Assembly: GCA_951406725.2 (NCBI GenBank)
Contig: OX597828.1
Span: forward strand, 34,658,001 to 34,722,000
Length of the DNA stretch: 64,000 bases
Reading direction: 5' to 3'
DNA from: Octopus vulgaris
Taxonomy: Eukaryota
The notes under the pieces: generated by a model
Seen by the model: the letters and a program-made list of their open reading frames with translations, nothing else
What the model was told of the DNA's origin: nothing
Databases searched by the model: none
In this document: in pieces, positions 5,714 to 62,289 of the stretch
Layout of the letters: each line of letters begins with the position of its first letter
Position numbering within the stretch: position 1 is the first letter of the stretch
Translations under genes and position numbers: made by a program

Positions 5714-5728
5714 CATGGGTACATTCTT

Positions 5729-6137
5729 ATTTCTTTATTCCCCACTAGGGGCTAAACATAGAGGGGACAAACAAGGACAGACAAAGGGATTAAGTCAATT
5801 ACATCGACCCCAATGCGTAACTGGTACTTAATTTATCGACCCCGAAAGGATGAAAGGCAAAGTCGACCTCGGCGGAATTTGAACGTAACGGCAGACGAAA
5901 TACCTATTTCTTTATTACCCACAAGGAGCTAAACACAGAGAGGACAAACAAGGACAGACAAACGGATTAAGTCGATTATATCGACCCCAATGCGTAACTG
6001 GCACTTATTTTATCGACCCTGAAAGGATGAAAGGCAAAGTCGACCTCGGCGGAATTTGAACTCAGAACGTAGCGGCAGACGAAATACCGCTAAGCATTTC
6101 GCCCGGTGTGCTAACGTTTCTGCCAGCTCGCCGCCTT
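5729..6137 (-). mobile_element. SINE family A, tandem dimer with 15-bp TSD
   Basis: tRNA-like head (A box ctggcagaaacgttag, B box gagttcaaattcc), central gcctttcatcctttcggggtcgataaa domain (resembles the Meta/MESC SINE domain) and LINE-like tail. TSD catgggtacattctt at 5714-5728 and 6138-6152. Dimer junction at about 5903. Confidence 0.92.
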
Positions 6138-6861
6138 CATGGGTACATTCTTCCAGACAAAGCCAGTAAACAAACAACTACAACAACAAAACAAAGACGT
6201 TAAAAACCATATGAAATTTTCTAGCCATCTTAGGAGTACCGATGAAAGAAAAAACATAGTTTGTAGTTAATCTACATAAACTGCAAACATGTCACAGATG
6301 TTAAGGTGATTAATAATTATTCGCTAAAGAAAACTCATTCATATTATTAACAACACAGATAAAGTGGACAAAGAAGAATAATTGAACGCGAAATAAACAA
6401 ACAGCTAAAATCGCTTAATTAAATTTCTTAATTAATTAGATATGGAGGGTAAGGTTGTCTTCATGCTCTTCCAAGATCCTCCCATTCTTGTTGGACTGGT
6501 ATCGATGGTGATTTTCTTTATATCTTTCTTTTCCTTTTTTGACATACAACATCGATTTTCTGGAACATTTGTTCCAAAACATTTCCGGATTTCTGATTTT
6601 TTCAAACTAAGGGAGATCACTTTTGTCAACACACTCGTGATAAGGAAAATATCAAATTTACTTGAATTATTAAAAGAAATACACCAAGGTACATAATCAA
6701 ATTCGTGCGCAATATAAGATATTCCGGATCATCAGTGCCTGGAAAGTCGGTGTTGTATTGTATATACGAGTATAGACACAGGCGTGGCCATGTGCTAAGA
6801 AACTTACTTCGCAGCCTTATGGTTCCGGGTTCGATTCCAAATAGTGATCTGAACAACAACA

Positions 6862-21525: not shown

Positions 21526-21627
21526 GATGTTCTGTACGTGACAAATGTATATCCGAGTTCGATCCGTGTCACATTCAGTAAATGTTTTACAGAGTAACAT
21601 TCGGTTGATCAATATTTTAATGAGTAG

Positions 21628-22032
21628 AAAGGCGCCGAGCTGGCAGAAACGTTAGCACGCCGGGCGAAATGCTTAGCGATATTTCGTCTGCCGTTACGTT
21701 GTGAATTCAAATTCCGCCGAGGTCGACTTTGCCTTTCATCCTTTCGGAGTCGATTAAATAAGTACCAGTTACGCACTGGGGTCGATATAATCGACTTAAT
21801 CCGTTTGTCTGTCCTTGTTTGTCCTCTCTATGTTTAGCCCCTTGCGGATAGTAAAGAAATAGGCATTTCGTCTGTCTTTATGTTCTGAGTTCAAATTGCG
21901 CCGAGGTCGACTTTGCTTTTCATCCTTTCGGGGCTCGATAAATTAAGTACCAGTTTCGCACTAGGGTCGATCTAATCGACTGGTCCCCTTCCTAAAAATT
22001 TCGGGCCTTGTACCTAGTGTAGAAAAGATTAT
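21628..22032 (+). mobile_element. SINE family A dimer with two different tails
   Basis: Unit 1 ends in the LINE-like tail ...gtaaagaaata. It is followed by ggcatttcgtctg and unit 2, which has an alternative tail (aaaatttcgggccttgtacctagtgtagaaaagattatt). Confidence 0.9.
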
Positions 22033-22109
22033 TTTGTGAGTAAAGTTTGATAAACAGAACTGTGCAGATGCACGTAGTACGCACACACACACACACACAC
22101 ATACACACA

Positions 22110-23839: not shown

Positions 23840-24056
23840 GATGATTTCGAATTTTGGTACAAGCCCAGCAGTTTCTGGGGAGAGGGAAGTCGATTACATT
23901 CACGCCAGTATTCACCAGGTTCTTGTTTTATCGACCTCAAAAAGATGAAAGGCAAAGTCGACCTCGGTAGAATTAGAATTCCAAACGTGAAGGCGGACGA
24001 AATACCGCTAAGCATTTCGTCCGGCGTGCTAACGTTTCTGCCAGCTTGCCGCCTTC
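23840..24056 (-). mobile_element. SINE family A, degenerate
   Basis: Homology to 27605-27838. Confidence 0.85.
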
Positions 24057-27188: not shown

Positions 27189-27604
27189 TATACATACATG
27201 CATGCATAGGGGAAGGGTAGAACAGGAATAAGTGGTGCCCAACGGTCACTAAGCGATATTAACATAATTAAAACCAATTAAGGTTTTCCTAGCAATCCCT
27301 TTGACCTACCTCGGTTAACACGTGCAAATAATATAGCGGGGTAAAAGTTCGAGGTACCTTGCCATGAACTTTCAAACTTACCCTACCCCTCTTCTGTTTT
27401 TCTCTTGCTATATGTGTTTGTTTAAATATGTGTGTATGTCTGTACGTACGTATGTATGCATGTATGTATGTCTGCATAAATGTATGTATGTATGTAGATT
27501 TGTGTGTATGTCGGTATGTATGTATAAACCTTTTGACAGCGAATTCTAAATTTAGGCAGAAGGCTCTGCCCTCACCGGCGAAACTTCGAGGTCACTATCA
27601 ATAA

Positions 27605-27838
27605 TAAGGGTGCGAGCAGGCAGAAACGTTAGCACGCCGGGCGAAATGCTTATCGGTATTTCGTCTGCCGTTACGTTCTGAGTTCAAATTCCGCCGAGGT
27701 CGACTTTGCCTTTCATCCTTTCGGGGTCGATAAATTAAGTACCAGTTACGCACTGGGGTCGATCTAATCGACTTAATCCGTTTGTCTGTCCTTGTTTGTC
27801 CCCTCTGCGTTTAGCCCCTTGTGGGTACTAAAGAAATA
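27605..27838 (+). mobile_element. SINE family A, full-length monomer with 11-bp TSD
   Basis: TSD actatcaataa at 27594-27604 and 27839-27849. Confidence 0.92.
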
Positions 27839-28272
27839 ACTATCAATAAAGTTTTAAAAGCATCTGAGTAATTGTGAACATGCAGCGAGCGTTGTTTTCT
27901 GTCAATGTTCAAATGCATTGTGTGTGTGTGTGTGTGTGTGAGTGTGTGTGTGTGTGTGTGCGTGCGTGTGTGTTTTATTGATTGTGTGCCAATTGCGTGT
28001 GTACATGTGTGAATGCATCAGTCATGGATTTTCTCGGACTATCAGCTCCTCCTCCTTCTCCTCCTGCTAAGACTTTTAACTCTTTCCGACGAGAGCCATG
28101 CTAGAAACGTTGTTTCCTTTGAGCGTCAATCTAAAGTATGCACTGTGTACGCTTGATTGACTTTTGTTGTTTTTTTCCCTGTTTTCATTATTTTGGTTTG
28201 CCGATATACACATACATACATACATACATACATACATACATACATACATACATACATACATACAAACACACT

Positions 28273-35689: not shown

Positions 35690-36050
35690 ATTCGTTTATT
35701 AGCCACAAGGACTTACATGAAATTACATAAAGTGACATACAACATAAAAGACAAAAACGAGACGATACAATGGGTTTTACAATATATAAACAGTATATAT
35801 AACGATTACAAATTTAATAATTTAAAACTCCCAATAGGGGAGGCGCCTTAAGGACCTCGTGGAAAAATCCACAAAAGTCATACGTGCCTGAACAACAGAG
35901 CAAGAACCCTTCTCCTTCTGTATACAGGTGCACGCTCAGAATTAGTCCTTTCACACTGGCCATTCTTCCAACATTCACCCACCTTTCAACAAACTTGCCA
36001 CAAGGCAACACTTCCCTCTCCACCCTCAACTTCCTTTTCAAATGAAACTT
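35690..36050 (-). mobile_element. L1/Tx1-like LINE 3' end (ORF2 C-terminus and 3' UTR)
   Basis: KFHLKRKLRVEREVLPCGKFVERWVNVGRMASVKG, homologous to 37010-37140 and 50675-50720. Tail ccttgtggctaataaa. Confidence 0.8.
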
Positions 36051-36160: not shown

Positions 36161-36211
<51 letters not shown>

Positions 36212-36254
36212 GGCTGATTGGTAGAATGGTAAAACTATCCGACAATATTTATTC

Positions 36255-37385
36255 CTGGCCCCACACCAACAATAGAATGTTCCAGTGCAAAGGCATCTGA
36301 CATATCTAAAACAACACCAGGTCCACCGACCACACCAATACTAGGGCAACCCCACCTCGCACCAAAAAGAAAGCACACACACACACACACAACAGTCAAC
36401 CACAGAGACTCCCATCAGGCCACCAACTGCACCAACAGAGTAACCTCGGTCTTATACGTTCTCACATCACTTTCCGATCGGCATTGGGATTGATTAGAGG
36501 GGGATGTGTAAATGTTCGTGGCCTAGGATCGCCCTGGAAGCAGCGGTGCCTTCTCAACGACCTTAGGTCACTATCTATGAATGTCACGGCTGTTAGCGAA
36601 ACCAGGATTCCTGACATACGTGATCTGGCCCCATTTTCGACGAATTTGAGATCTACGCATCTCTTTGTCAGCCTGAAATGTGGGTTGAGGTGGTAGCGCT
36701 GTTTATGAAAGGCCTGGATCTCGAGGTATGGATCTTGGGCCTTGCAAGTAAGTTAATGGTCCTGGATGTGAGTAGCAGCGAAGGTAGTGCTTTCAGACTA
36801 GTCACTGTGTAGTTCCCAACCGAAGCGGAGCAGCCAGATTTATTCAGATGTTTGGCGGTTTTCTTTGGAACATCTCGCTCTTTAGTTTTAGTGGGCGATT
36901 GGAACGTGTAGCAGTTTTCCTCTTTCTGATGGCTATAGTGAAAGAGGTAGTGTGGTGTACAAGATTGAAAGGACTGAAGACAGGTACTGTCCTCTTTGGC
37001 CAAACCCTCATCGACTTTTTCAAGTTTCACTTAAAAAGGAAAGTGAAAGTAGAGAGGAAAGTTCTGATCCCCCAATAGATTTATTGAAAGGTGGGTGAAT
37101 ATGGCGAGGTTGGCTCGTGTGAATGGGCCGACTCTGAACTTTCGCTTGTAAACCGGGGTAGTTGAGAAGAAGAAGAGAGGCGTCTGCTGAGGTGCAACTG
37201 ACTGGTCGGGATAACCAGGCTGTATGGGGTTCGCCTTTCGGGGAATTTTTACTGTTAAATTGTTTTTATATTTGTTTTTTTTTTTGTTACTTATTGTGTA
37301 CACGGCATTGTGCAACACCCCACCTGTCCCTTGTATTGTCCCTATTTGTTTTGTATTCGGCCCTTGTGGCCAATAAAACAAAGTA
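36255..37385 (+). mobile_element. Internally deleted L1/Tx1-like LINE (endonuclease start fused to ORF2 C-terminus)
   Basis: APE endonuclease N-terminus CVNVRGLG...VTAVSETR from 36484, a GDWN-like stretch at about 36893, then directly VKEVVWCTRLKG...FFKFHLKRKVKVER and the 3' tail ggcccttgtggccaataaaa. Confidence 0.82.
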
Positions 37386-40609: not shown

Positions 40610-40992
40610 GGATGGAAGCACTCCGTCGGTTACGACGACGAGGGTTCCGGTTGATCCGATCAACGGAACAGCCTGCTCGTGAAATTAACGTGTAAGTGGC
40701 TGAGCACTCCACAGACACGTGTACCCTTAACGTAGTTCTAGGGGATATTCGGCGTGACACAGAGAGTGACAAGGCCGGCCCTTTGAAATACAGGTACAAC
40801 AGAAACAGGAAGTAAGAGAAAGTTGTGGTGAAAGAGTACAGCAGGGATCACCACCATCCCTGCCGGAGCCTCATGGAGCTTTAGGTGTTTTCGCTCAATA
40901 AACACTCACAACGCCCGGTGTCTGGGAATCGAAACCGCGATCCTATGACCGCGAGTCCGCTACCCTAACCACTGGGCCATTGCGCCTCCACA
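40610..40992 (-). mobile_element. SINE family C, full length with 38-bp TSD
   Basis: Minus-strand head gtggaggcgcaaTGGCCCAGTGGttaggg...GGTTTCGATTCCcag. Exact 38-bp direct repeat at 40572-40609 and 40993-41030. Confidence 0.93.
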
Positions 40993-44870: not shown

Positions 44871-45399
44871 TCTTATTATCTATATCTAAGAACTAGATAT
44901 AACACTATGTACCAACTGTCACGCTAGTGATACAGCTAATACGGTACGCCAACATATTTTCCAGTGTAAATGTGTTATTCCCAACGACTTTTTCTTGTTA
45001 TTTTAATCTTTTTTTCTGGTTGTTTGTATTATTGTTTCACACGTAGACATTAACCTTTCTTCCTTTAAAAACAGAAAAGAAATTATATTGACATCATATA
45101 AATTTAGAAACTGCGATAGAACGTGAAATAATTATTGTTTTGAATGATGAAACTTGAAGCAAATAAATCTATAAATAGTCCTTTCTATTATTGGAACAAG
45201 GTCTGAAATTTGTGGGGAGGATGTCAGTCGATTGCAGCGACTCCAGCACTTGACTGGTATACATTTTTATCAACCCCGAAATGATGAAAGGTAAAGCCGG
45301 TCTTGGCAGAATTTGAACTCAAAACTCGGTGTGCTAACGGTTCTTTTCTAAGGCACAATGCCCGAAATTCTAAACATGTTAAGTAATACAAGTAATGAG

Positions 45400-46780
45400 T
45401 AATATGAGTATTTTTATCCATTTCGTAGAACTCGTAGTTCTTATATTTTTCAAAAAGTTCTGCAATCCTAGCGGCTGATTTTTTCGCTTTTGTTTCTCTT
45501 ATTAAATCTTCATTATTGCTGTATAACGCGACTATCCCGCTGTCTTCTGCTTCCTTCCTTACTATTTTTGGTTTGTCTCTTCGCAGTTTTTTTTTTTTTT
45601 TTGTTTTGGTCTTAGTTTGACCTATTTTTGTTGATTTGAGCTTTCCATTTTTCTCTTGTTGTTAGTTGCTTACTTTTCTTCTGTTTTCTCTCTCTCTCCT
45701 CCTTACCATCGGTTTCTTCCTCACTGTCTCTACAGTGTTTTTTTTTTATATAGCCCAGCTGACCACACTGGAAACATCGGGGCTTACGCCCCTCGACGAA
45801 TACGTTAACAAAATTCCTCCCGAATTTCTATTTTCTCCGGTAACTGATCTAAAATTGACTGTTCTGATTTATTAGGAGGTGAAACGTTTGACCGGTCCAA
45901 TAAGCCTTTTCTGTGACGGTAGTCTGAAGGAGTGTTATATTATCTTCCTTTTTTACCAGGACTGCTGCCATCAACCACATAGGGTCGACTTGAGGTGGGA
46001 TCCTTGGTATACGTATCTTTAACGTCCTCATTCCCATATATATTGGAATTAAAACAACCTCCTGCGTTTCTAAAGATTAAACTGAGTGCACATTTGTAGT
46101 TTCTATATCTTTTAGTTGTACTTCGATAGTACCAAACTTCTTTCCTCTGGCTAGGTATATGATATCCTGCCAGATGGGTTTCAAGCACTTCTCAACTTTC
46201 TCTTCGCTCACTCGATCAATTTTTTGTTTCTTTTAGACAGTAAAATTTAAAAATAATTGTTTTTCTTTTTTCTAACATTAATAGTTCTTCCGGGGGTTGA
46301 ACTTTCGCAACACCGTCCTCAATTCTTCTCATATCTTTGTACTTTATCAAGTCATATTTGTTTGTCGACAGCTGGCGGGTTCCACCTCCAGCCACCGACG
46401 CAAAACTTCTCTTTTGTTTATTTTCTTCTGTTTGAAGGCTTTTCACGTCAATATTCCTCTTTGCAACAGTACACAGTGATGGTTAGGGAAATTCATTTTC
46501 AGAAGAATCCGAAACATCGCCAAATATTAAGCTTTCAATCTTTTTTGCCTCCTTGTCGGTTGACCACTCTTCGCCAGACGAAGTTACACTTTTCGGCATC
46601 TTGCCAGCAATTAATGTTTCCCCCACAGGGGAAAACACACGATAGTTTTCGAACGGAGGCTATCACACAAGTAATTATAACAGGAACAATAATTATAACA
46701 GGAAATAACTCAAAAACAGTCGATAGAAACTTGCACTTACTTGCACTCCAATAATAATTACCAATAAATCCAAATTCACA
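45400..46780 (-). mobile_element. LINE ORF1 (gag-like, CCHC) element, decayed, no ORF2 seen
   Basis: ATG at 46599 (MPKSVTSSGEEWSTDKEAKKIESLIF), then SFASVAGG, GKKFGTIEV, IPPQVDPMWL, YWTGQT and VNVFVEGRKPRCFQCGQLG across frameshifts. Confidence 0.82.
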
Positions 46781-47217
46781 CAGACGAAATACCTATTTCT
46801 TTACTACCCAAAAAGGGCTAAACACAGAAGGGACAAACAAGGACAGACAAGCGTATTAAGTCGATTATATCGACCCCAGTGCGTAAATGCTACTTATTTA
46901 ATCGACCCCGAAAGGATGAAAGGCAAAGTCGACCTCGGCGGAATTTGAACTCAGAACGTAGCGGCAGACGACATACCTATTTCTATTTCTTTAATATCCA
47001 CAAGGGGCAAAACACAGAGAGGACAAACAAGGACAGACAAATGGATTAAGTCGATTACATCAACACCAGTGCATAACTGGTACTTAATTTATCGACCCCG
47101 AAAGGATAAAAGGCAAAGTCAACCTCGGTGGAATTTGAACTCAGAACGTAACGGCAGACGAAATACGGCTACGCATTTCGCCCGGCGTGCTAACGTTTCT
47201 GCCAGCTCGCCACCTTA
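46781..47217 (-). mobile_element. SINE family A tandem array directly 5' of the ORF1 element
   Basis: Two units, each tail joined to ggtat(t/g)tcgtctg (junctions at about 46793 and 46977). Confidence 0.92.
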
Positions 47218-50194: not shown

Positions 50195-50362
50195 TTCTTT
50201 TCTACTTTAGGCACAAGGCCCAAAATTTTGGGGGAGGTGGCCAGTCGAATAGATTGACCCTCAGTACGCAACTGGTACTCAATTTATCGACTCCGAAAGG
50301 AGGAAAGGAAAAGTCGACCTCGGCGGAATTTGAACTCAGAACGTAAAGACAGACGAAATACC
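50195..50362 (-). mobile_element. SINE family A body starting at the GGTATTTCGTC site
   Basis: Minus strand reads ggtatttcgtctgtctttacgttctgagttcaaattccgccgagg...; it carries the alternative tail. Confidence 0.9.
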
Positions 50363-51112
50363 AATTTCTTTATTGCCTACCGGGAGCCAAACATAGAAAT
50401 GAACAACTGATGGGATCAGTAAAGCGATATGATTTTACATATAATGTGACTTAAAAAATTTAAATACAATATTAAAAAATCGAATGGAATTAACAATACA
50501 AAGACAATACAAATGAAGAGATGATCAAGCAACGCTCCGACCCCACAAGCCCCGATCTACCGGTGGTACCTTTTTTTTTGTTCTTTTTTTTTCGTCTATT
50601 CACACGGTTCCTTGCATGCACAACACTCGTGCAAAATGCTTCCATCTCTTTTGGAACGTACACTCCGAGAGACATCACTTCTCCAGCCACAGCTTCCTTT
50701 TCAAATTAAAAGTAAAAAATGATCGTAAATTGTGTCCAGAGATAAAGTTGCCTGTCCTAATTCCTTTTATCCTAGTCTTCCATACTGCCTCTTTCGCTAT
50801 TGTTACAACCGTGAGAAAACAATTCTTACCTTCGTTCGTTAAAACTCCCGAAGGGTCAATTTTTATAATTGACTCAGTCGACAGTCGTACTCTTCCTTCG
50901 CCGGACAACAGGTGTTCAGCATAAGCCCACATTTCAGATATCTCCGGACACTGGACAATAGCATGAGGGACGGTTTCCCTGTCCCCTCCCCCTCGCATCT
51001 TGGACAGGTCGGAGACTGACGCTCACCGTGTCTTGCGAGCTTATCCCAAACGGGCAAGACATCTCTGTAGCATTGCCAGATTAAGGATTTTGGGAAGTTT
51101 CCAATGGAGGTA
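50363..51112 (-). mobile_element. L1/Tx1-like LINE 3' end (ORF2 zinc finger and 3' UTR), 5'-truncated
   Basis: LPVWDKLARHG...TCPRC...ETVPHAIVQCPEISEMW (C-terminal CCHC of L1/Tx1 ORF2), then AKEAVWKTRIKG and FNLKRK. Tail ggtaggcaataaagaaatt. Confidence 0.85.
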
Positions 51113-51313
51113 ATCGATTTGTTAAAATTGCCGAAATGCTCGAAATTTCAGACGAAATATCTTACAAACTATAGAATTTTCTCAATAAAGCCAAGAGAAA
51201 ATGATGTTTTATAAACACATTCTACCAGTATACGAAGTTTAAAACTTTTTTAGTTACCTAGAAATTATGTTACAAAGTGCCGTTCAAAAGGAAAAGATCC
51301 AAATTTTAATATA

Positions 51314-52099: not shown

Positions 52100-53700
52100 A
52101 CGAATCGCGCGAGGCGCTTGCTGCTGCTTGCCGTTGTTTTTTTCTCATTTTAGGGGAAAGAAAAGATGTCGTCCCTCCGTCATGGATACCTATGCGAGGG
52201 TTGCTGCGACAAGAAGTGTCGCATCACTGGGTTTTAAAAAGAAAATGTTACAATTGATAAAGAAGAAATATAGAGATGTGAACAGTACGTGAGAAGGGAG
52301 GGAGAAAGCATCAAGCTGATCCCTCCAGCAGAAACAACAGAGGATAAGAACCTTAAAAAGATTATATATAAACTCAAGATACGAACACAAAGAAAATAGT
52401 ATGGATATCAGAAGAAATAGAAAAGTGTCTTGGAGATGTAATGGAAAGAGCAACATACGCCAGCAGAGGGAAAAGTTCGGTACGGTGGAGGTGAGGTTTG
52501 CCACAAGTGAAGAGGCGGCCTCGCTATCTACCGCTATCTTAAGAACAGAAAGGTTTACAATGTTACCCCTTTACAAAGGAAGAAGAAGCATAAGGATTAA
52601 GATTCCGAACATACCGCCGGAGATAAAAACGGAATGGCTGGTGACAGCGATTCTAGGTTCTACAAAAGACGAACCCGAACTTGGTACAGTTACCGAAACT
52701 AATATAGTGAACTGGAAGGGATTCAGTGTCGAGATGTGGCTTATGGCCACAACAGAAGACATAGAGAGAATCCCCTTCCAGATAGAAGTGGAAAATGAAC
52801 CAACGATAAACATTATTGTCGAAGGAAGGCGACCCAACTGTCATCTGTGCGGAACTAGAGGACATATAAGGACTGAGTGTCTATTATATGAATTTACACA
52901 AAGTAAAGAGACAACAGAAAAGGAATAAAAAGAGCAAAAGAAACAATAGCGACAAGACAAAGTTCAGAGAAAAAAAACAAGAAGGACAACAAGAAGAGAG
53001 AAATGGAAAAACCAAAGGAAGAGAGCAAAGGAGCTACCAGCCCCAAAAGTAGAAAAAGATCGAAGCCGAGGGAAGACTCAGCGGAAACAAAAGGTAATGA
53101 TACGTTTAAATTTTATGGAGCATTTGTAATATACAAAAGATCCTATGAAATAGAGAAAAAAGGATCGAGAATGAAGAGAGTAACAAGAGTAAGGATGGGA
53201 ACCAAGTATGACGAAGACGAGATTGGTGTTTTAGTCCCTGCGGACAGTTACGCCAATTTCATCGAGGTCGCCAGAAAGAAAATACAAGGAGATAAGAGGT
53301 GTCGGTTGATGGATCATCCACCTCCCGTAATGGATTATCAGGAGCTGAAAAGAAAAATAGAATATCTCTGAAATTTATGAAAAAGTGGAAAATGTTACGA
53401 AAAACTATGTTTGTGAAATTTAATTTTTTGAACTGTGAACTTCAATTGTAATTTTGTGAAATTGATATGTAATTTTGTAAAACTCAGTTATAATCTTTGA
53501 GAAAATCAATTACGGGAAAAGACAGACAAAATGTAACCACTCCACTTCGGGGTTCGAGTGAGCATTGCGCCTCATTATAATATCTTATAATTTATTCTTT
53601 TTTAATTTCTTCGTCTTTATTCATTCTCTTTTGTTATTTTATGTTCCCCAATTGTACTGTCCCCATCTATGTATAGTCCTTTATGGATAATAAATAAACC
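52100..53700 (+). mobile_element. ORF1-only LINE derivative with LINE-type 3' tail
   Basis: ATG at 52182 (MDTYARVAA), ORF 52401-52928 with a CCHC knuckle, ORF 53003-53371, then about 330 bp of UTR ending tgtccccatctatgtatagtcctttatggataataaataaa. Confidence 0.8.
52182..53371 (+). pseudogene. LINE ORF1p-like nucleic-acid-binding protein (RRM-like region and zinc knuckle), disrupted
   Basis: EKFGTVEVRF, IKIPNIPPEI and INIIVEGRRPNCHLCGTRGHIRTEC (Cx2Cx4Hx4C). Frameshifts near 52290-52400 and a stop at 52928. Confidence 0.85.
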
Positions 53701-55029: not shown

Positions 55030-56522
55030 TAACGAACATTTATACAACCAATGTGAATAGACGTGACTTGCCTTTTTGATCGGGGCGTCCTGTGGAGAGG
55101 GACTCTCCACCTTTTCTTGACTTAGGGTCGGAGATGGCAAGCCTTCAAACATAAATTGGTGAAAATCCAGTCTCAATGTTGAGACCGATTTTCTATGTGT
55201 TAAACAACATGTACGTTTTTTCGTCCAATTCATAAAATTCGTAATTTGTGTATTTATCTGACAGTTCAATTAATCTAGTTGCTGATTTTTTTGGTTTTTA
55301 TTTCCCGCATTAAGTCTTCGTTTTTGCTGTGTAGTGCAGCTATTCCTCTGTTCGTCACCCCCTCCGCCTTCCTCGGTCTGTCTCTCTTGGCTTTTTTTTT
55401 TTGTCTCGACTCACTCTGCTTTTGCTGGTTCGAGCCTTCCATCTTCCTTTTGTTGTTTATTTTTCCTTCTATTTTTCTCTCTCTCTCTTTCTTCCTCTTC
55501 GCCGTCTGATTCATCTACACCTTCTTTACAATATTTTTTAATGTGACCCATTTGGCCGCACCGGAAACGTGGGGCTTACTCCCCTCAGCAAAAATATTTA
55601 TAACTTCCTCCCCTACTTCCACGATTTCTGGGATCTGTTCTAAATTTTTTTGGTCAGCCTGCAGTATGAGGTTAAGCGTTTGACCAGTCCAATAGGTATT
55701 CTCTGTGACGGTAGCCAGCAGGAGGTTAATATTATATTCCCTGTTTGCCGCCATCAATCACATAGGGTTTACTCCGGGTGGAATTCTTGATATTCTCACT
55801 TTTGATGTTCTCATTCCCATATAAATTGGGATTAACATTGTGTCTTCCGACTCTAAAGATTTTATAGTGTTTTTGTGCCGTTTCTGCATTCTTGAACCTC
55901 ATCACGATGGTTCCAAACTTCTTCCCTTTGGCTAGATACGTAATGCCCTGCCAGATGGGGTTTAGACATTTTTGCTCACATATCTTATCAATTTTACGAG
56001 CTTTTAAGCAGAATATCTTGAAAATAATATTTTTTTCCTCCGTTAATTCTTCTTCTGGTATTTCCACTTTTACTATTCCATCTTGTTCTGTTATCATATC
56101 TTTGTATTTTAGTAATTCATTTGTCAGTTGAAAGCTGTCGCGTTCCACTACCAGCTGCTGATACAAAACTTTTCCTTCATTAATTTTGGATGGTCCTTTC
56201 TTCTGTCTTTCTTTTGGTGTTCGTAACTCTTGGTAATGCCGGAAATTCGCTTTCCGACACACCAGAAACGTTATCAAAAATTAAGCTTTCTATTTTCTTT
56301 GCTTCTCGCTCAATCGATGATTCATCACCCGACGAAGAAGACAAACTTTTTGGCATATTACCGGCAATTAATGTTTTCCCCCACAGGGGAAAACCACAGA
56401 TAGCTTTCGAAAGAAAACTATACTACAATTTTTTTTCAACAATAAGTCCAACAATAGGCACAAGAGATATAACAACAGAAACTTACGAACACACTCCAAC
56501 AATAAATTTTCAATAACAGGCG
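55030..56522 (-). mobile_element. LINE ORF1 (CCHC) element, decayed, no ORF2 seen
   Basis: ATG at 56356 (MPKSLSSSSGDESSIEREAKKIESLIF), then GKKFGTIVMRF, YWTGQTLNL and INIFAEGSKP..FRCGQMGHIKKYC. Confidence 0.85.
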
Positions 56523-56755
56523 TACGAAATACCAATTTCTTTACTACCCACAAGGGGCTAAACACAGAGAGGACAGACAAACGGATTAAGTCGATTATAT
56601 CGACCCCAGTGTGTAACTGGTACGTAATTTATCGACCCCGAAAAGATGAATGGCAAAGTTGACCTCGGCGGAATTTGAACTCAGAACGTAACGGCAGCCG
56701 AAATACTGCTAAGCATTCCGGCTGGCCTGCTAACGATTCTGCCAGCTCGCCCACC
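56523..56755 (-). mobile_element. SINE family A directly 5' of the ORF1 element
   Basis: Tail ...gtagtaaagaaatt joined to ggtatttcgt, then ORF1 element 5' UTR. Confidence 0.9.
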
Positions 56756-57620
56756 TGACTAAGCAACAAATTGTCAATGTCGGTAGGACGTTGGACAGAA
56801 TGTCTCGTAGTATTTGTTCTGCGTTCAAATCTGGTCGAGGTCAATATTACTTATATGTTGTCAGGGTCGGTGGGTAAAAAGTAACAATACAGAGCGGTGC
56901 ATTCGCAGAATTGAAAGCATGTCAAACCGGATGCCTTACAGAATTTGTTCCGGTTCAGAGGTCAAGCCCAGCCATGCTCTTCTAAGGTGAAAGACAATAT
57001 ATCATCCGGCATCGTGGAGAACTTTAGCAAAAGCCCTAATGTTGCAAACTTTCAGTCTAGATCACTGGTTTGAGGACACTTCTCCCCACTTACTTCCAAC
57101 ATTTCTAGGGAGATTGTAAAGGGTCATGAGCACTGCCTTCTCTCCTCAGAAAAAGATAAAATAAACATATCCGTTAATCTTCCACATGTCACTCCTCAGA
57201 AATTTGAAACTCTTGAAAATTAGTTGAAAGAATCTTAAACTGGGAATGAATCTTCACAATTCAAAAGACAATAAACAGACATGGCCGCCATGTTTGACAG
57301 GTACACTAACTTTAATAAATAAGTAAATAAATAATGTAAATTGATGGTGTATTTTGAATTAATGATTGGCCGGTGGTCGAATGGCGGGATCAAATGAAAT
57401 TATAGTAAGGAATAATTATATACATGTTATTCGCTTTCAAAAATTGAAATTGTTTTATGATTTCGTCAGAGGAGGAAGTTGCAGCGCCTATTATCTTATA
57501 CAAGGGGTGGGAAAGAGGAGAAAATAGCACGATTCTTAGATTATCCTCAGACTGGGTACCTAGTTTAAATATCTACAACAAAGTGGACCTTGGTTAACAG
57601 AAAAAATCCTTTTGGCTCGT

Positions 57621-57853: not shown

Positions 57854-58554
57854 GGTCAGTAATATCAGAACTGAACTAAAGGACAGGAAAGGCAGCCGGT
57901 TTAACGCGTAAATAAAATTAAGAAACGGTTATAATGTGAGATATTTTTCTCTGGGAATCGAAACTGCAATCCTATCACCACGAGTCCGCTGTCCTAACCA
58001 TGGCCATTGCGCCTCCACACTGTAAATGTAAATATTACATCAATCGAATCAATAAACAGCCGTTTAGATAAATAAATATTGGAAGACAGTTTAACCAATG
58101 GATCTGATATACAATTTAAAACAAATTGAAAATTTATTCTTTTAGATTGTGAAATAAATGTTTAATTTGTGCCAAAGGGAGTTATATAACTAGAATATAT
58201 ATTTAATACTCATAAACTTTTCTATTTCTAGTTATCTTTCTGGAACAAATTTTGAATATTTATTTGTTAATATTTGATTTGAAGATGAAATAAATTAATA
58301 TAAGCGTTGGTCGCTAATAATATTTTTGAAAGAAATGGCGTAAAAGGAAAATGATTATAAGCAAATCTCTGGCTACGATCGTCTGTACTGAAGGAATGAA
58401 TGAATGAAGATGAAAGCTTTTAGTAATATTAATGCTAATATTAATCATTCATTTTTGAACTTGCAAAGTCACAGAGAAAGACGAAAGAATAATTAGCTTC
58501 TTTATGAAGAGACGAACATAGCAAACTAACATTTTTATAATGTGTCCTTCATTA

Positions 58555-59093
58555 ACCTCTCGTGGATTTCAGTTGATCCGATAAACGGAACACCCTGCTC
58601 CTGAAATTAACGTGCAAGTGGCTGAGCATTCCACAGACACGTGTGCCCTTAATGTAGTTCTCGTCAAGATTCAGCGTGACACAGAGTGTGACAAGGCTGG
58701 CCCTTTGAAATAAAGGTACAAAAGAAACAAGAAGAAAGAGAGAAAGTTGTGGTGAAAGTCTACAGCGGGGTTTAACCATCCCTTGCCAGAGCTTCGTGGC
58801 GCTTTAGGTGTTTTCGCTCCAAAAATAACGTAGTTCTCGGGGAGATTCAGCATGACACAGTGTGACAAGGCTGGCCCTTTGAAATACAAATACAACGGGA
58901 ACAGAAAAAAAGAGTGAGAGAAAATTGTGGTGAAAGAGTACAGCAGGGTTCCCCACCACCCCTGCCGGAGCCTCGTGGAGCTTTAGGTGCTTTCGCTCAA
59001 TAAACACTCACAACGCGCCCGGTCTGAGAATCGAAACCGCGATCCTACGACCGCGAGTCCGCTGCCCTTACCACTGGGCCATTACACCTCCAC
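58555..59093 (-). mobile_element. SINE family C with about 180-bp internal tandem duplication
   Basis: Homologous to 40610-40992. The segment gtagttctc...gctttaggtg occurs twice (about 58654-58820 and 58830-59000). Confidence 0.88.
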
Positions 59094-59149: not shown

Positions 59150-59410
59150 GATTTCTTTATTGGCTACGCAGGGCTGAACACAGAAGGGACAAAATAGAAA
59201 GTTGAGCTTTTCTTTTGGGGAAGAAGGAAAAAAAGGGGAGGGGCGAATTCCGATCAAAAGGGATCGTAAAAGAAAAAAAAGTGGGGCCGATCAGTAGGGA
59301 TCGTGTATCACAGAAATGTCAATGTAAAAAGGGAAAACAGATTAGGTTTGTCCGTTGATAGAAAAGCCTACGGAAAAGACCACGGGAACTTTGGGCAATA
59401 GTGTCATGCA
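59150..59410 (-). mobile_element. L1/Tx1-like LINE 3' UTR fragment
   Basis: Minus-strand tail tgtcccttctgtgttcagccctgcgtagccaataaagaaat matches the LINE and SINE A tails. Confidence 0.7.
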
Positions 59411-60788: not shown

Positions 60789-62289
60789 GTTACTACTACA
60801 ATCCAATACCCAGTCATGAGAAATACACTTTAAATGATTTTATTGGAAATATTTAATTCTGTTATAAACGTTCAATAAAATCGAAGTACGTGGTAATTTT
60901 ATTGTAAATATTTTTCAGAAAATCGATCAAGTTAAAAATTTCCTATTGCGGTATATCATTTTAAAATTAATATAAGTTAAATTGATTTCTAAAATCGACA
61001 CGAACAAGTTCTGATTTAGGGAAAGGGATATAGGCGATTAAATCGACTCCAGCACTTATGTTATCGACCTTGGGGATAACAAAAAGCAAAATCCACCCCG
61101 GCAGCATTTGATCTCGAAACGTAACTAACTTCTCCCCACCCAGCAGTAAATATTCTCTAAATTTTCAAATTTTGCCACAAGGCTAGCAATTTTGGAGAAG
61201 AGGATAAATCGATTAATTGACCCCAGTACGCAGCTGGTATTTCGTCCAGCGCGCTAACGATTCTGCCACCTCGCCGTCTTATTCTCTCATCTAATCACGA
61301 TGTAAAAACAGAAAAAATTACAATTTGAAGATTTTTTTTTATCGTAAATTCAATTCTGATTTGAATTGTCTTCGGGGAGGTTCTTCTAATCGATCCATTG
61401 CTAATTACGAACCTGTGATAGATTTTTGTTTTACTGTGATCTCTTATTTCAATTTGATTAAATGCTAAATTTGATTATTGAGTCTATATTTTGAATTTTT
61501 CTTCCTTTACATTTTTTCTTTTTTTTCTTTCTTCGTCCTTTCTTGTCTTGGTGTTTTGGCGTTTTGGGGTTAGTTATTTGTTAGGCAATTTCATCAACTC
61601 CTGTTCCGTCTTCGACTCCGACGGGAAATTACACCAGTCAGAGTTGCCGTCTGGTAAGCTTCGCTTGTCTAATTTGAGATGTTTTAGCGAGTTGTTGTTA
61701 TGCTGTACTAGGAGAAGGAAATAGGTTACTCCTGATCCTAACTCTACTAAAGACGATGGGGCTGATTCCCCTTGTGTAGGGAGCACTCTTAATCTTAGAA
61801 CTGTTACTTCTTGCCCTGCTCGTGTAGATATATACCATAGCAGACAGGTTAGGTGTCCGGTTGAGTGACTCCCAAAAGAAGTGTTTCCATGTCTAATGAT
61901 GATCAGGCCATCATTGGTGCTTGTGGTAATGGGAACCTGTTTCCATCTATGGCACTTTTTCGTTTTTTTTTTGTATTTTCTCTTTTCGTTGTTCAGTTAG
62001 GTTTGATCAGTTTCCCTTCCCACCTCGTACTTTCCACGTCCCTTTTCGAACACCATAGGACCTTCTCTGCTGGACTATTATAGAATCTACCAATATCTTT
62101 CTTTTCCCTACTAAAAACTGGCGGCGATCAATCCATGACATTTAAGCCGGCACTCTTGGAAGAAGTAAAGAAGTAATTCACCAAATCACATCAGGTAAAT
62201 ACACACAGTGACGAAGGAGACAAAGAAGAGATGCCATGACCTTTCGAAGAACAGTTTTCCTCCTCCCTGAAATTCCAACTATCAGAAGT

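Follow-up and report, generated by a model that had tools for sequence, protein, structure and literature searches.

A single site in the tRNA-like head of an octopus SINE is abutted by the 3' end of a LINE ORF2, by two ORF1-bearing LINE-like 5' ends and by five tails of the SINE itself (SINE A), all within the window, that is, the whole 64-kb stretch of DNA that was analyzed. We consider it probable that a LINE of the L1/Tx1 group prefers this site and that SINE A, which shares the tail of the LINE, inserts there in register. The data behind this targeting model are six junctions from one 64-kb window. The initial annotation had proposed that a SINE subfamily with a LINE tail inserts into its own family and grows head-to-tail, and this is supported: the same site also holds the 3' end of a LINE and the 5' ends of two LINE-like elements, which supply the missing link for a SINE carrying both the LINE tail and the LINE target; the LINE was traced to the level of the L1/Tx1 group.

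The window has a GC content of 36% and harbors many microsatellites and repeats. The SINE A unit at 21629 (~232 nt) gave 23 BLAST matches in it. Seven units in the window bear tail A and are young (5-13% apart from one another), older SINE copies end in other tails, here called B and C, and the family as a whole displays at least three tail types on one head and body. The units first needed here are the following:

21629..21861, plus strand: SINE A unit with tRNA-like head, body and LINE-type tail A (BLAST and alignment).
21678..21690, plus strand: left copy of the 13-nt site in the head (GATATTTCGTCTG), on the 3' arm of a 12-13 bp hairpin.
21816..21861, plus strand: tail A of the same unit, ~46 nt, common to 3' ends of the L1/Tx1 group.
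21862..22033, plus strand: headless SINE unit with tail B, beginning at the site (GGCATTTCGTCTG); presumed host.
21629-22033, plus strand: A-B dimer formed by these units, unit 1 with tail A and unit 2 with tail B.
23840-24055, minus strand: SINE with tail C and an A-like head, flanked by a 15-nt target site duplication (TSD).
27606..27838, plus strand: full SINE A monomer, off target, with its TSD at 27594-27604 and 27839-27849.

The 21629 unit contains what we take, by eye and against the consensus, to be an A-box-like motif (~21641-21651) and, past the hairpin, a B-box-like motif; ARAGORN and Rfam gave 0 matches. The target site sits at the loop edge of the 12-13 bp hairpin, between the box-like motifs, so structure may matter; in whole-head folds this hairpin was not strongly unusual (z -0.2 to -2.3). 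Folds of the tail RNA were unremarkable (z +0.5 to -1.2) and therefore no tail stem-loop is claimed. A motif search of literature full text and of two of the three MetaSINE supplement files retrieved no relevant match to SINE A. Ohshima and Okada reportedly described three tRNA-derived octopus SINEs in 1994, OK, OR1 and OR2, with which SINE A, B and C could well be identical. An additional SINE copy at 61155-61281 (minus strand) carries an internal deletion that fuses the head to the late body, and the 5' arm of its hairpin is a perfect complement of the site.

At the junction, a tail ending in AAAGAAAT(A/T) is followed directly by GG(T/C)AT(T/G)TCGT, which is the SINE from nt 50 on. This arrangement occurs six times in the window against 0.01 expected and in 0/100 shuffles. 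Three junctions are insertions of SINE into SINE (at 21861, 5905 and 46978), two place a SINE beside an ORF1-bearing LINE-like 5' end, a stretch of the site (13 nt at 46793, 10 nt at 56533) separating tail A from a LINE-like 5' UTR and a degenerate ORF1, and one joins the LINE ORF2 3' end to a headless B unit (50363). All six lie at one nucleotide, the partners are heterologous in four of them, and no homology was detected between the tail end and head nt 49. The six junctions presumably arose independently. The site is abutted by five of the seven SINE A tails and by one of the five other A-like or LINE tails, the remaining two and four, respectively, being off target; thus, of 12 tails that are of type A or related to it, 6 terminate there, for which a generous random model gives P ~1e-15. 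Targeting is preferential and not specific, and inspection of the off-target sites by eye revealed no common motif. One G of the site's GG is altered in three of the four heads that lead a multimer or a LINE (~21678-21679, 47166-47167 and 56699-56700), while GG is intact in 6/6 junction-side copies (P 0.002-0.013, post hoc); the altered GG in leading heads could be a trace of inaccurate joining at the nick, or a sign that growth of the array has ceased.

Apart from the A-B dimer, two A-A dimers were delimited:

5728..6137, minus strand: A-A dimer, junction 5905/5904.
46794..47216, minus strand: A-A dimer, unit 1 tail with an extra GAAATA.

Later dimer units had been described as headless and starting at GG(T/C)AT(T/G)TCGTCTG, and this is the case at all three loci; the start corresponds to nt 50 counted from 21629, so 49 nt are missing. 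The tail of unit 2 in the 21629 dimer is indeed unlike that of unit 1, tail B differing from the A majority at 20/45 aligned tail columns, and this dimer combines an A-like head with a B unit as 3' partner, so the head could derive either from the host or from the insert. A dimer had also been reported at 46781-47217; its dimer part stands (46794-47216), whereas the site occurs at this locus a third time, as a 13-nt copy followed by a LINE-like 5' UTR and ORF1.

The LINE-like sequences of the window are listed below:

46781..46793, minus strand: 13-nt site copy, flanked by tail A and the first LINE-like 5' UTR; putative TSD.
45365..46780, minus strand: LINE-like 5' UTR and degenerate ORF1 with a CCHC knuckle; ORF2 and tail absent, lower end approximate, set by eye.
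56534..56757, minus strand: SINE A unit, its head showing greater divergence than the body (alignment).
56524..56533, minus strand: 10-nt site copy, flanked by tail A and the second LINE-like 5' UTR; putative TSD.
55030..56523, minus strand: another LINE-like 5' UTR with a degenerate ORF1, sharing 66% identity with the element at 45365..46780; 3' part lost by truncation, lower end approximate.
50363..51108, minus strand: 5'-truncated LINE with ORF2 C-terminus (zf-RVT region), 3' UTR and a tail ending at the site (database relatives and tail HMM).
50196..50362, minus strand: headless SINE unit with tail B, beginning at the site; its nearest relative is 21862-22033, 14% apart.
~52000/52320..53699, plus strand: ORF1-only element with an A-like tail, off target, linking the ORF1 family to the tail family.
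59151..59193, minus strand: off-target tail of A-like type; coding sequence was not detected upstream of it.

The fragment at 50363-51108 encodes an ORF2 C-terminus (E-value = 7e-31 to the database relative P0106). Its long relatives carry reverse transcriptase (RT) and zf-RVT domains, with an APE domain as well in three of six; specifically, P0106 contains RVT_1 and zf-RVT, and P0108 contains Exo_endo_phos too. The best solved match of one ORF2 relative is L1 ORF2p (E-value = 1e-72), compared with R2 at 6e-29. These domains and the L1 ORF2p match place the LINE in the L1/Tx1 group. Long ORF2 relatives were found by exhaustive search (98), a word-indexed search having found none among 114 candidates. 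No solved structure was matched by the ORF2 C-terminal profile, and a Pfam scan at an E-value of 0.01, covering 82 of the 185 non-repetitive frames of at least 65 aa, gave no LINE domain, so the identity of the LINE is known solely through its database relatives. No RT domain was detected within the 64-kb window and no copy in it joins ORF1 to a detectable ORF2. ORF1-like frames with CCHC occur in the window and their relatives pass zf-CCHC; all seven relatives of one window ORF bear Octopus names, and one named relative of ORF2 is from Argonauta. A CCHC-type ORF1 is associated with Tx1, and together with the targeting of a repeat it makes Tx1 itself the likely identity of the LINE; the protein searches returned no named Tx1 reference. 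Visual inspection suggested an APE start motif past ORF1, near 55050; the ORF2 profile did not pick it up, and it was left uncounted.

The element ending at 53699 has ORF1 and no ORF2, the identity between its ORF1 and the one at 46780 is 31%, and its A-like tail ties the ORF1 elements, indirectly, to the tail family; by the same indirect route the ORF1-bearing 5' ends would belong with the ORF2 fragment. The element ending at 53699 resembles the half-L1 (HAL1-type) non-autonomous elements. Two further ORF2-bearing fragments of the L1/Tx1 group, at 35695-36050 (minus strand) and 36200-37382 (plus strand), lie in opposite orientations on either side of a single (AAT)n array. Both terminate in AAT/TTA repeats, and the latter has an endonuclease start fused to the ORF2 C-terminus by internal deletion. 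Their location suggests repeat targeting in this lineage, and they are likely to be microsatellite-preferring sister families. On the minus strand at 45181-47216, a composite of head, two A units, site and ORF1 runs into a 30-nt remnant of tail B (45342-45369) and then into an old B copy. A 14-nt repeat, imperfect at 2 positions, encloses the composite (1/400 random flanks were as good, the boundaries having been picked post hoc), which may represent a single old B host that received nested insertions and underwent a deletion.

SINE A and the LINE have ~45 nt of tail in common. When an HMM profile built from the seven A tails was run on the window, it recovered, beyond the A tails themselves, 59151-59193 (E-value = 7.6e-8), 50364-50399 (E-value = 7.1e-6) and 53658-53697 (E-value = 7.2e-5); 37357-37377 was marginal (E-value = 0.09, shuffle p 0.009-0.14) and the other six matches were weaker. 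Of the LINE tails to which tail A had previously been likened, those at 59150 and 53650 are thus significantly similar and that at 37330 is marginal. As to their being LINE tails, the one at 59150 lacks coding evidence of a LINE and the one at 53650 ends the ORF1-only element. The most informative tail, overlooked at that stage, is 50364-50399, which lies behind a real ORF2 C-terminus and at the target site. All four A tails tested matched it in pairwise comparisons with 2000 shuffles (p 0.0005-0.0095), whereas a B tail, the single one compared, showed no match to any of four LINE-like tails (p 0.23-0.97, with 0.97 against the 50364 tail). Dissimilarity between SINE tails and the LINE 3' end had been named beforehand as grounds for abandoning the proposal; what was found is a significant similarity of tail A to the tail that follows the LINE ORF2 C-terminus.

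TSDs were examined at seven SINE loci and were clear at three (27605, 5729 and 24056), weak or post hoc at two and absent at two. The monomer at 27605 has an exact TSD of 11 nt (1/400 random flanks as good) and the dimer at 5729 a perfect one of 15 nt (5714-5728 and 6138-6152, matched by 0/400 random flanks). As initially noted, these two TSDs are unrelated, and hence targeting is only preferential. Around the whole 21629 dimer (plus strand), a candidate TSD of 11 nt with 2 mismatches (21616-21626 and 22032-22042) is weak, 14/400 random flanks being equally good. In length, the stretches of site that precede the LINE-like 5' ends (13 and 10 nt) agree with the off-target TSDs (11 and 15 nt), and we read them as putative TSDs, both LINE-like elements having lost their 3' ends.

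According to the mechanism that we propose, the endonuclease would nick the bottom strand directly before GGTATTTCGTCTG and the top strand 10-13 nt further, and the LINE ORF2 would copy SINE A RNA by target-primed reverse transcription, often at the site and otherwise elsewhere with a TSD of 11-15 nt. A LINE inserting at the site would leave a short site copy at its own 5' end. In the case of the SINE, the cDNA end would presumably pair with the top-strand overhang or with a homologous head, and since the SINE A RNA itself holds the site, the 5' join would close in register, with no second head. The predicted product consists of one head, a new body and tail, and then the old body from the site onward. 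Every round would yield a fresh site, allowing arrays to grow, and the 3' partners could also be tail-B subfamilies or LINE ends. A LINE at the site would part the A and B boxes, and an in-register SINE would probably restore their spacing. One process (nick before GG, reverse transcription, second nick 10-13 nt downstream) could in this way produce all three junction types.

Some details run against the targeting model. The left and right copies of the site show 2 differences in each of the loci 21629, 47217 and 56757, and the LINE at 50363-51108 has no SINE head upstream, though simple insertion predicts one. About 40 nt before the first coding match of this truncated LINE, a 13-nt near-copy of the site occurs at 51149-51161 (minus strand), which could be a TSD or chance; its flank has no second copy in the window for comparison. 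The head of the 56757 unit differs at 7/56 positions, compared with 5/160 in its body (p 0.015, the sole case among five A heads, uncorrected for multiple tests), and carries the AATCG variant seen in older B/C copies. An older head is what the targeting model expects of a host, and it points to nt 1-62 having possibly come from the host; that a single head of the five shows it counts against the model.

A different origin of the junctions, at the RNA level, is unlikely in our judgment: SINE RNA would be cut in the loop of the head hairpin, leaving a headless RNA from nt 50, the RT would copy this RNA first and then switch to a tail-A or LINE RNA at its 3' end, and the resulting chimera would land at an unrelated site. 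The position of the junction at the loop edge of the hairpin, the perfect outer TSD of the 5729 dimer and the head missing upstream of the LINE at 51108 would all be accounted for, and 5' additions to SINEU-2 by template jump are described in the available part of PMC4494074. However, SINEU-2 junctions vary by up to 22 nt in the same portion of that paper while 6/6 lie at one nucleotide here, the hairpin is not strongly unusual by the fold scores given above, and an RNA-level origin leaves unexplained why 10 and 13 nt of the site precede the LINE-like 5' ends, unless the LINEs were already in the site.

Slightly less credible still is that a few source loci made the junctions once and that read-through transcripts (A-A, A-B and LINE-B) then spread as units, so that targeting would be largely inherited. 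Four of the seven A units are without any run of at least 4 T, so Pol III could read through them, and the outer TSD of the 5729 dimer is in agreement with such spread. The two headless B units are mutual nearest relatives (0.14) and may consequently stem from one source and not from independent events. Nevertheless, the same nucleotide would still have to be hit in no fewer than three or four independent founding events, and the A-A dimers differ in variant order. Spread from source loci is better seen as an add-on to targeting than as its replacement.

Unit divergence, calculated from a multiple alignment with row h_59920 left out, bears on the two remaining explanations. Tandem duplication or unequal crossing over at the DNA level, as in reptile SINE satellites or blood clam tandem SINEs, is very improbable. 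TRF does call the two A-A dimers tandem arrays (177 and 190 nt), such arrays have been described (PMC10702118 and PMC11481361, both in the parts available), and one diagnostic site, together with one hypervariable site, unites the two units of the 5729 dimer, which also counts against the targeting model. On the other hand, the units inside a dimer differ by 0.074 and 0.129 and those at different loci by 0.050-0.110, so neighboring units are not more alike than distant ones, as satellite-type local duplication would have them. The junction lacks homology between the tail end and head nt 49, the upstream units have complete tails, unlike the truncated inner tails of the clam arrays (available text), and the heterologous partners at 4/6 junctions, with LINE-to-B and A-to-LINE joins, disfavor duplication further. 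Simple slippage, which had been argued against from the start on account of the A-B dimer, fits poorly as well. Least probable of all is a single dimeric, Alu-like master as the source of all dimers, for which the common junction and one TSD-bounded dimer could be adduced: 3/9 informative sites define two variants among the A units, and these follow one another in opposite order in the 5729 dimer and in the 46794 dimer, the third of the three dimers examined is A-B, and LINE sequences occupy the same junction. Local duplication and a single dimeric master both fit poorly because of the divergence, the reversed order and the absence of junction homology.

Insertion of SINE A at a site preferred by its LINE partner belongs to a kind of system that is already known. 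In crocodilians, SINEU and Tx1-Mar have a common preferred site in Mariner-N4_AMi, tandem SINEU-3 copies sandwich a TSD and were read as sequential insertions, and the preference is graded, at 13-90% of copies (Kojima, 2015; PMC4494074, available portions). The two cases are alike in that a SINE and a LINE use one preferred site in a repeat, with tandem SINEs and a graded preference. They are unlike in that, according to those portions, the crocodilian target is a separate element, the heads are of U1/U2 type and no LINE was found with the 3' end of SINEU-1, whereas in octopus the passenger harbors the target within its tRNA-like head and has a tail in common with the LINE, and its later units lack the head and stay in register. 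From our comparison, what appears new is a passenger that holds both the target and the LINE's tail. Sequence-specific Tx1 elements include Tx1L in Tx1D, Keno in U2 and Kibi/Koshi in microsatellites (PMC4494074, same portions); these also are LINEs with a preferred multicopy site, related families having different repeat targets, although none of the targets listed there is a SINE. Tandem SINEs occur as reptile sSats, jerboa Dip multimers and blood clam arrays, for which recombination was suggested as the cause (PMC10702118, PMC11481361, parts available). They share the head-to-tail arrangement and, in the clam, later units without part of the head, but in those parts they appear as full-length tandems, or else their inner tails are truncated or their outer TSDs repeated, and there is no description of a LINE that uses the same junction.

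The octopus system resembles R2 in that a carried target sequence may steer the 5' join. In R2, a restriction-like endonuclease acts on rDNA and target sequence in the RNA can guide closure of the 5' junction. Target homology aids its integration into 28S (PMC4494074, available portions). Unlike R2, the relatives of the octopus LINE carry APE and are far nearer to L1 ORF2p, by the E-values given above. In O. vulgaris, SINEs make up ~11.6% of the genome and L1-Tx1 families are among those recently active (PMC13282606, in part). The available text of that 2026 annotation and of Marino 2022 (PMC8967140) covers SINE and L1-Tx1 abundance with no mention of targeting, and the literature searched, with Repbase and Dfam outside that search, yielded no description of a SINE-targeting Tx1 or a self-inserting SINE in octopus.

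Somewhat short of an even chance, in our estimation, is a wider closed loop. A Tx1-type LINE would use the abundant SINE head as a landing pad, and the tail-A SINE, carrying the target in its own RNA, would insert in register, keep one working Pol III promoter per array, turn rival subfamilies into tail-A sources and make new LINE targets with each jump, which could have helped to drive the SINE expansion of octopus. A self-targeting SINE, if true, would alter the counting, dating and consensus building of SINE copies, since its multimers would resemble dimeric families, and a SINE would join the list of Tx1-type targets. It would also offer a natural test of how RNA-carried sequence closes the 5' junction in APE-type retrotransposons, and an endonuclease with a defined 13-nt preference would be directly testable in vitro.

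Other mobile sequences were encountered in the window. A different SINE-like family is represented by dispersed copies at 58561-59093, 40639-40992 and 57950-58019, which are 85-87% identical, the first being arranged as two overlapping units. Finally, a Mariner-type transposase fragment (PF01359, E-value = 1.4e-16 in Pfam) is located at 1869-2204 on the plus strand.
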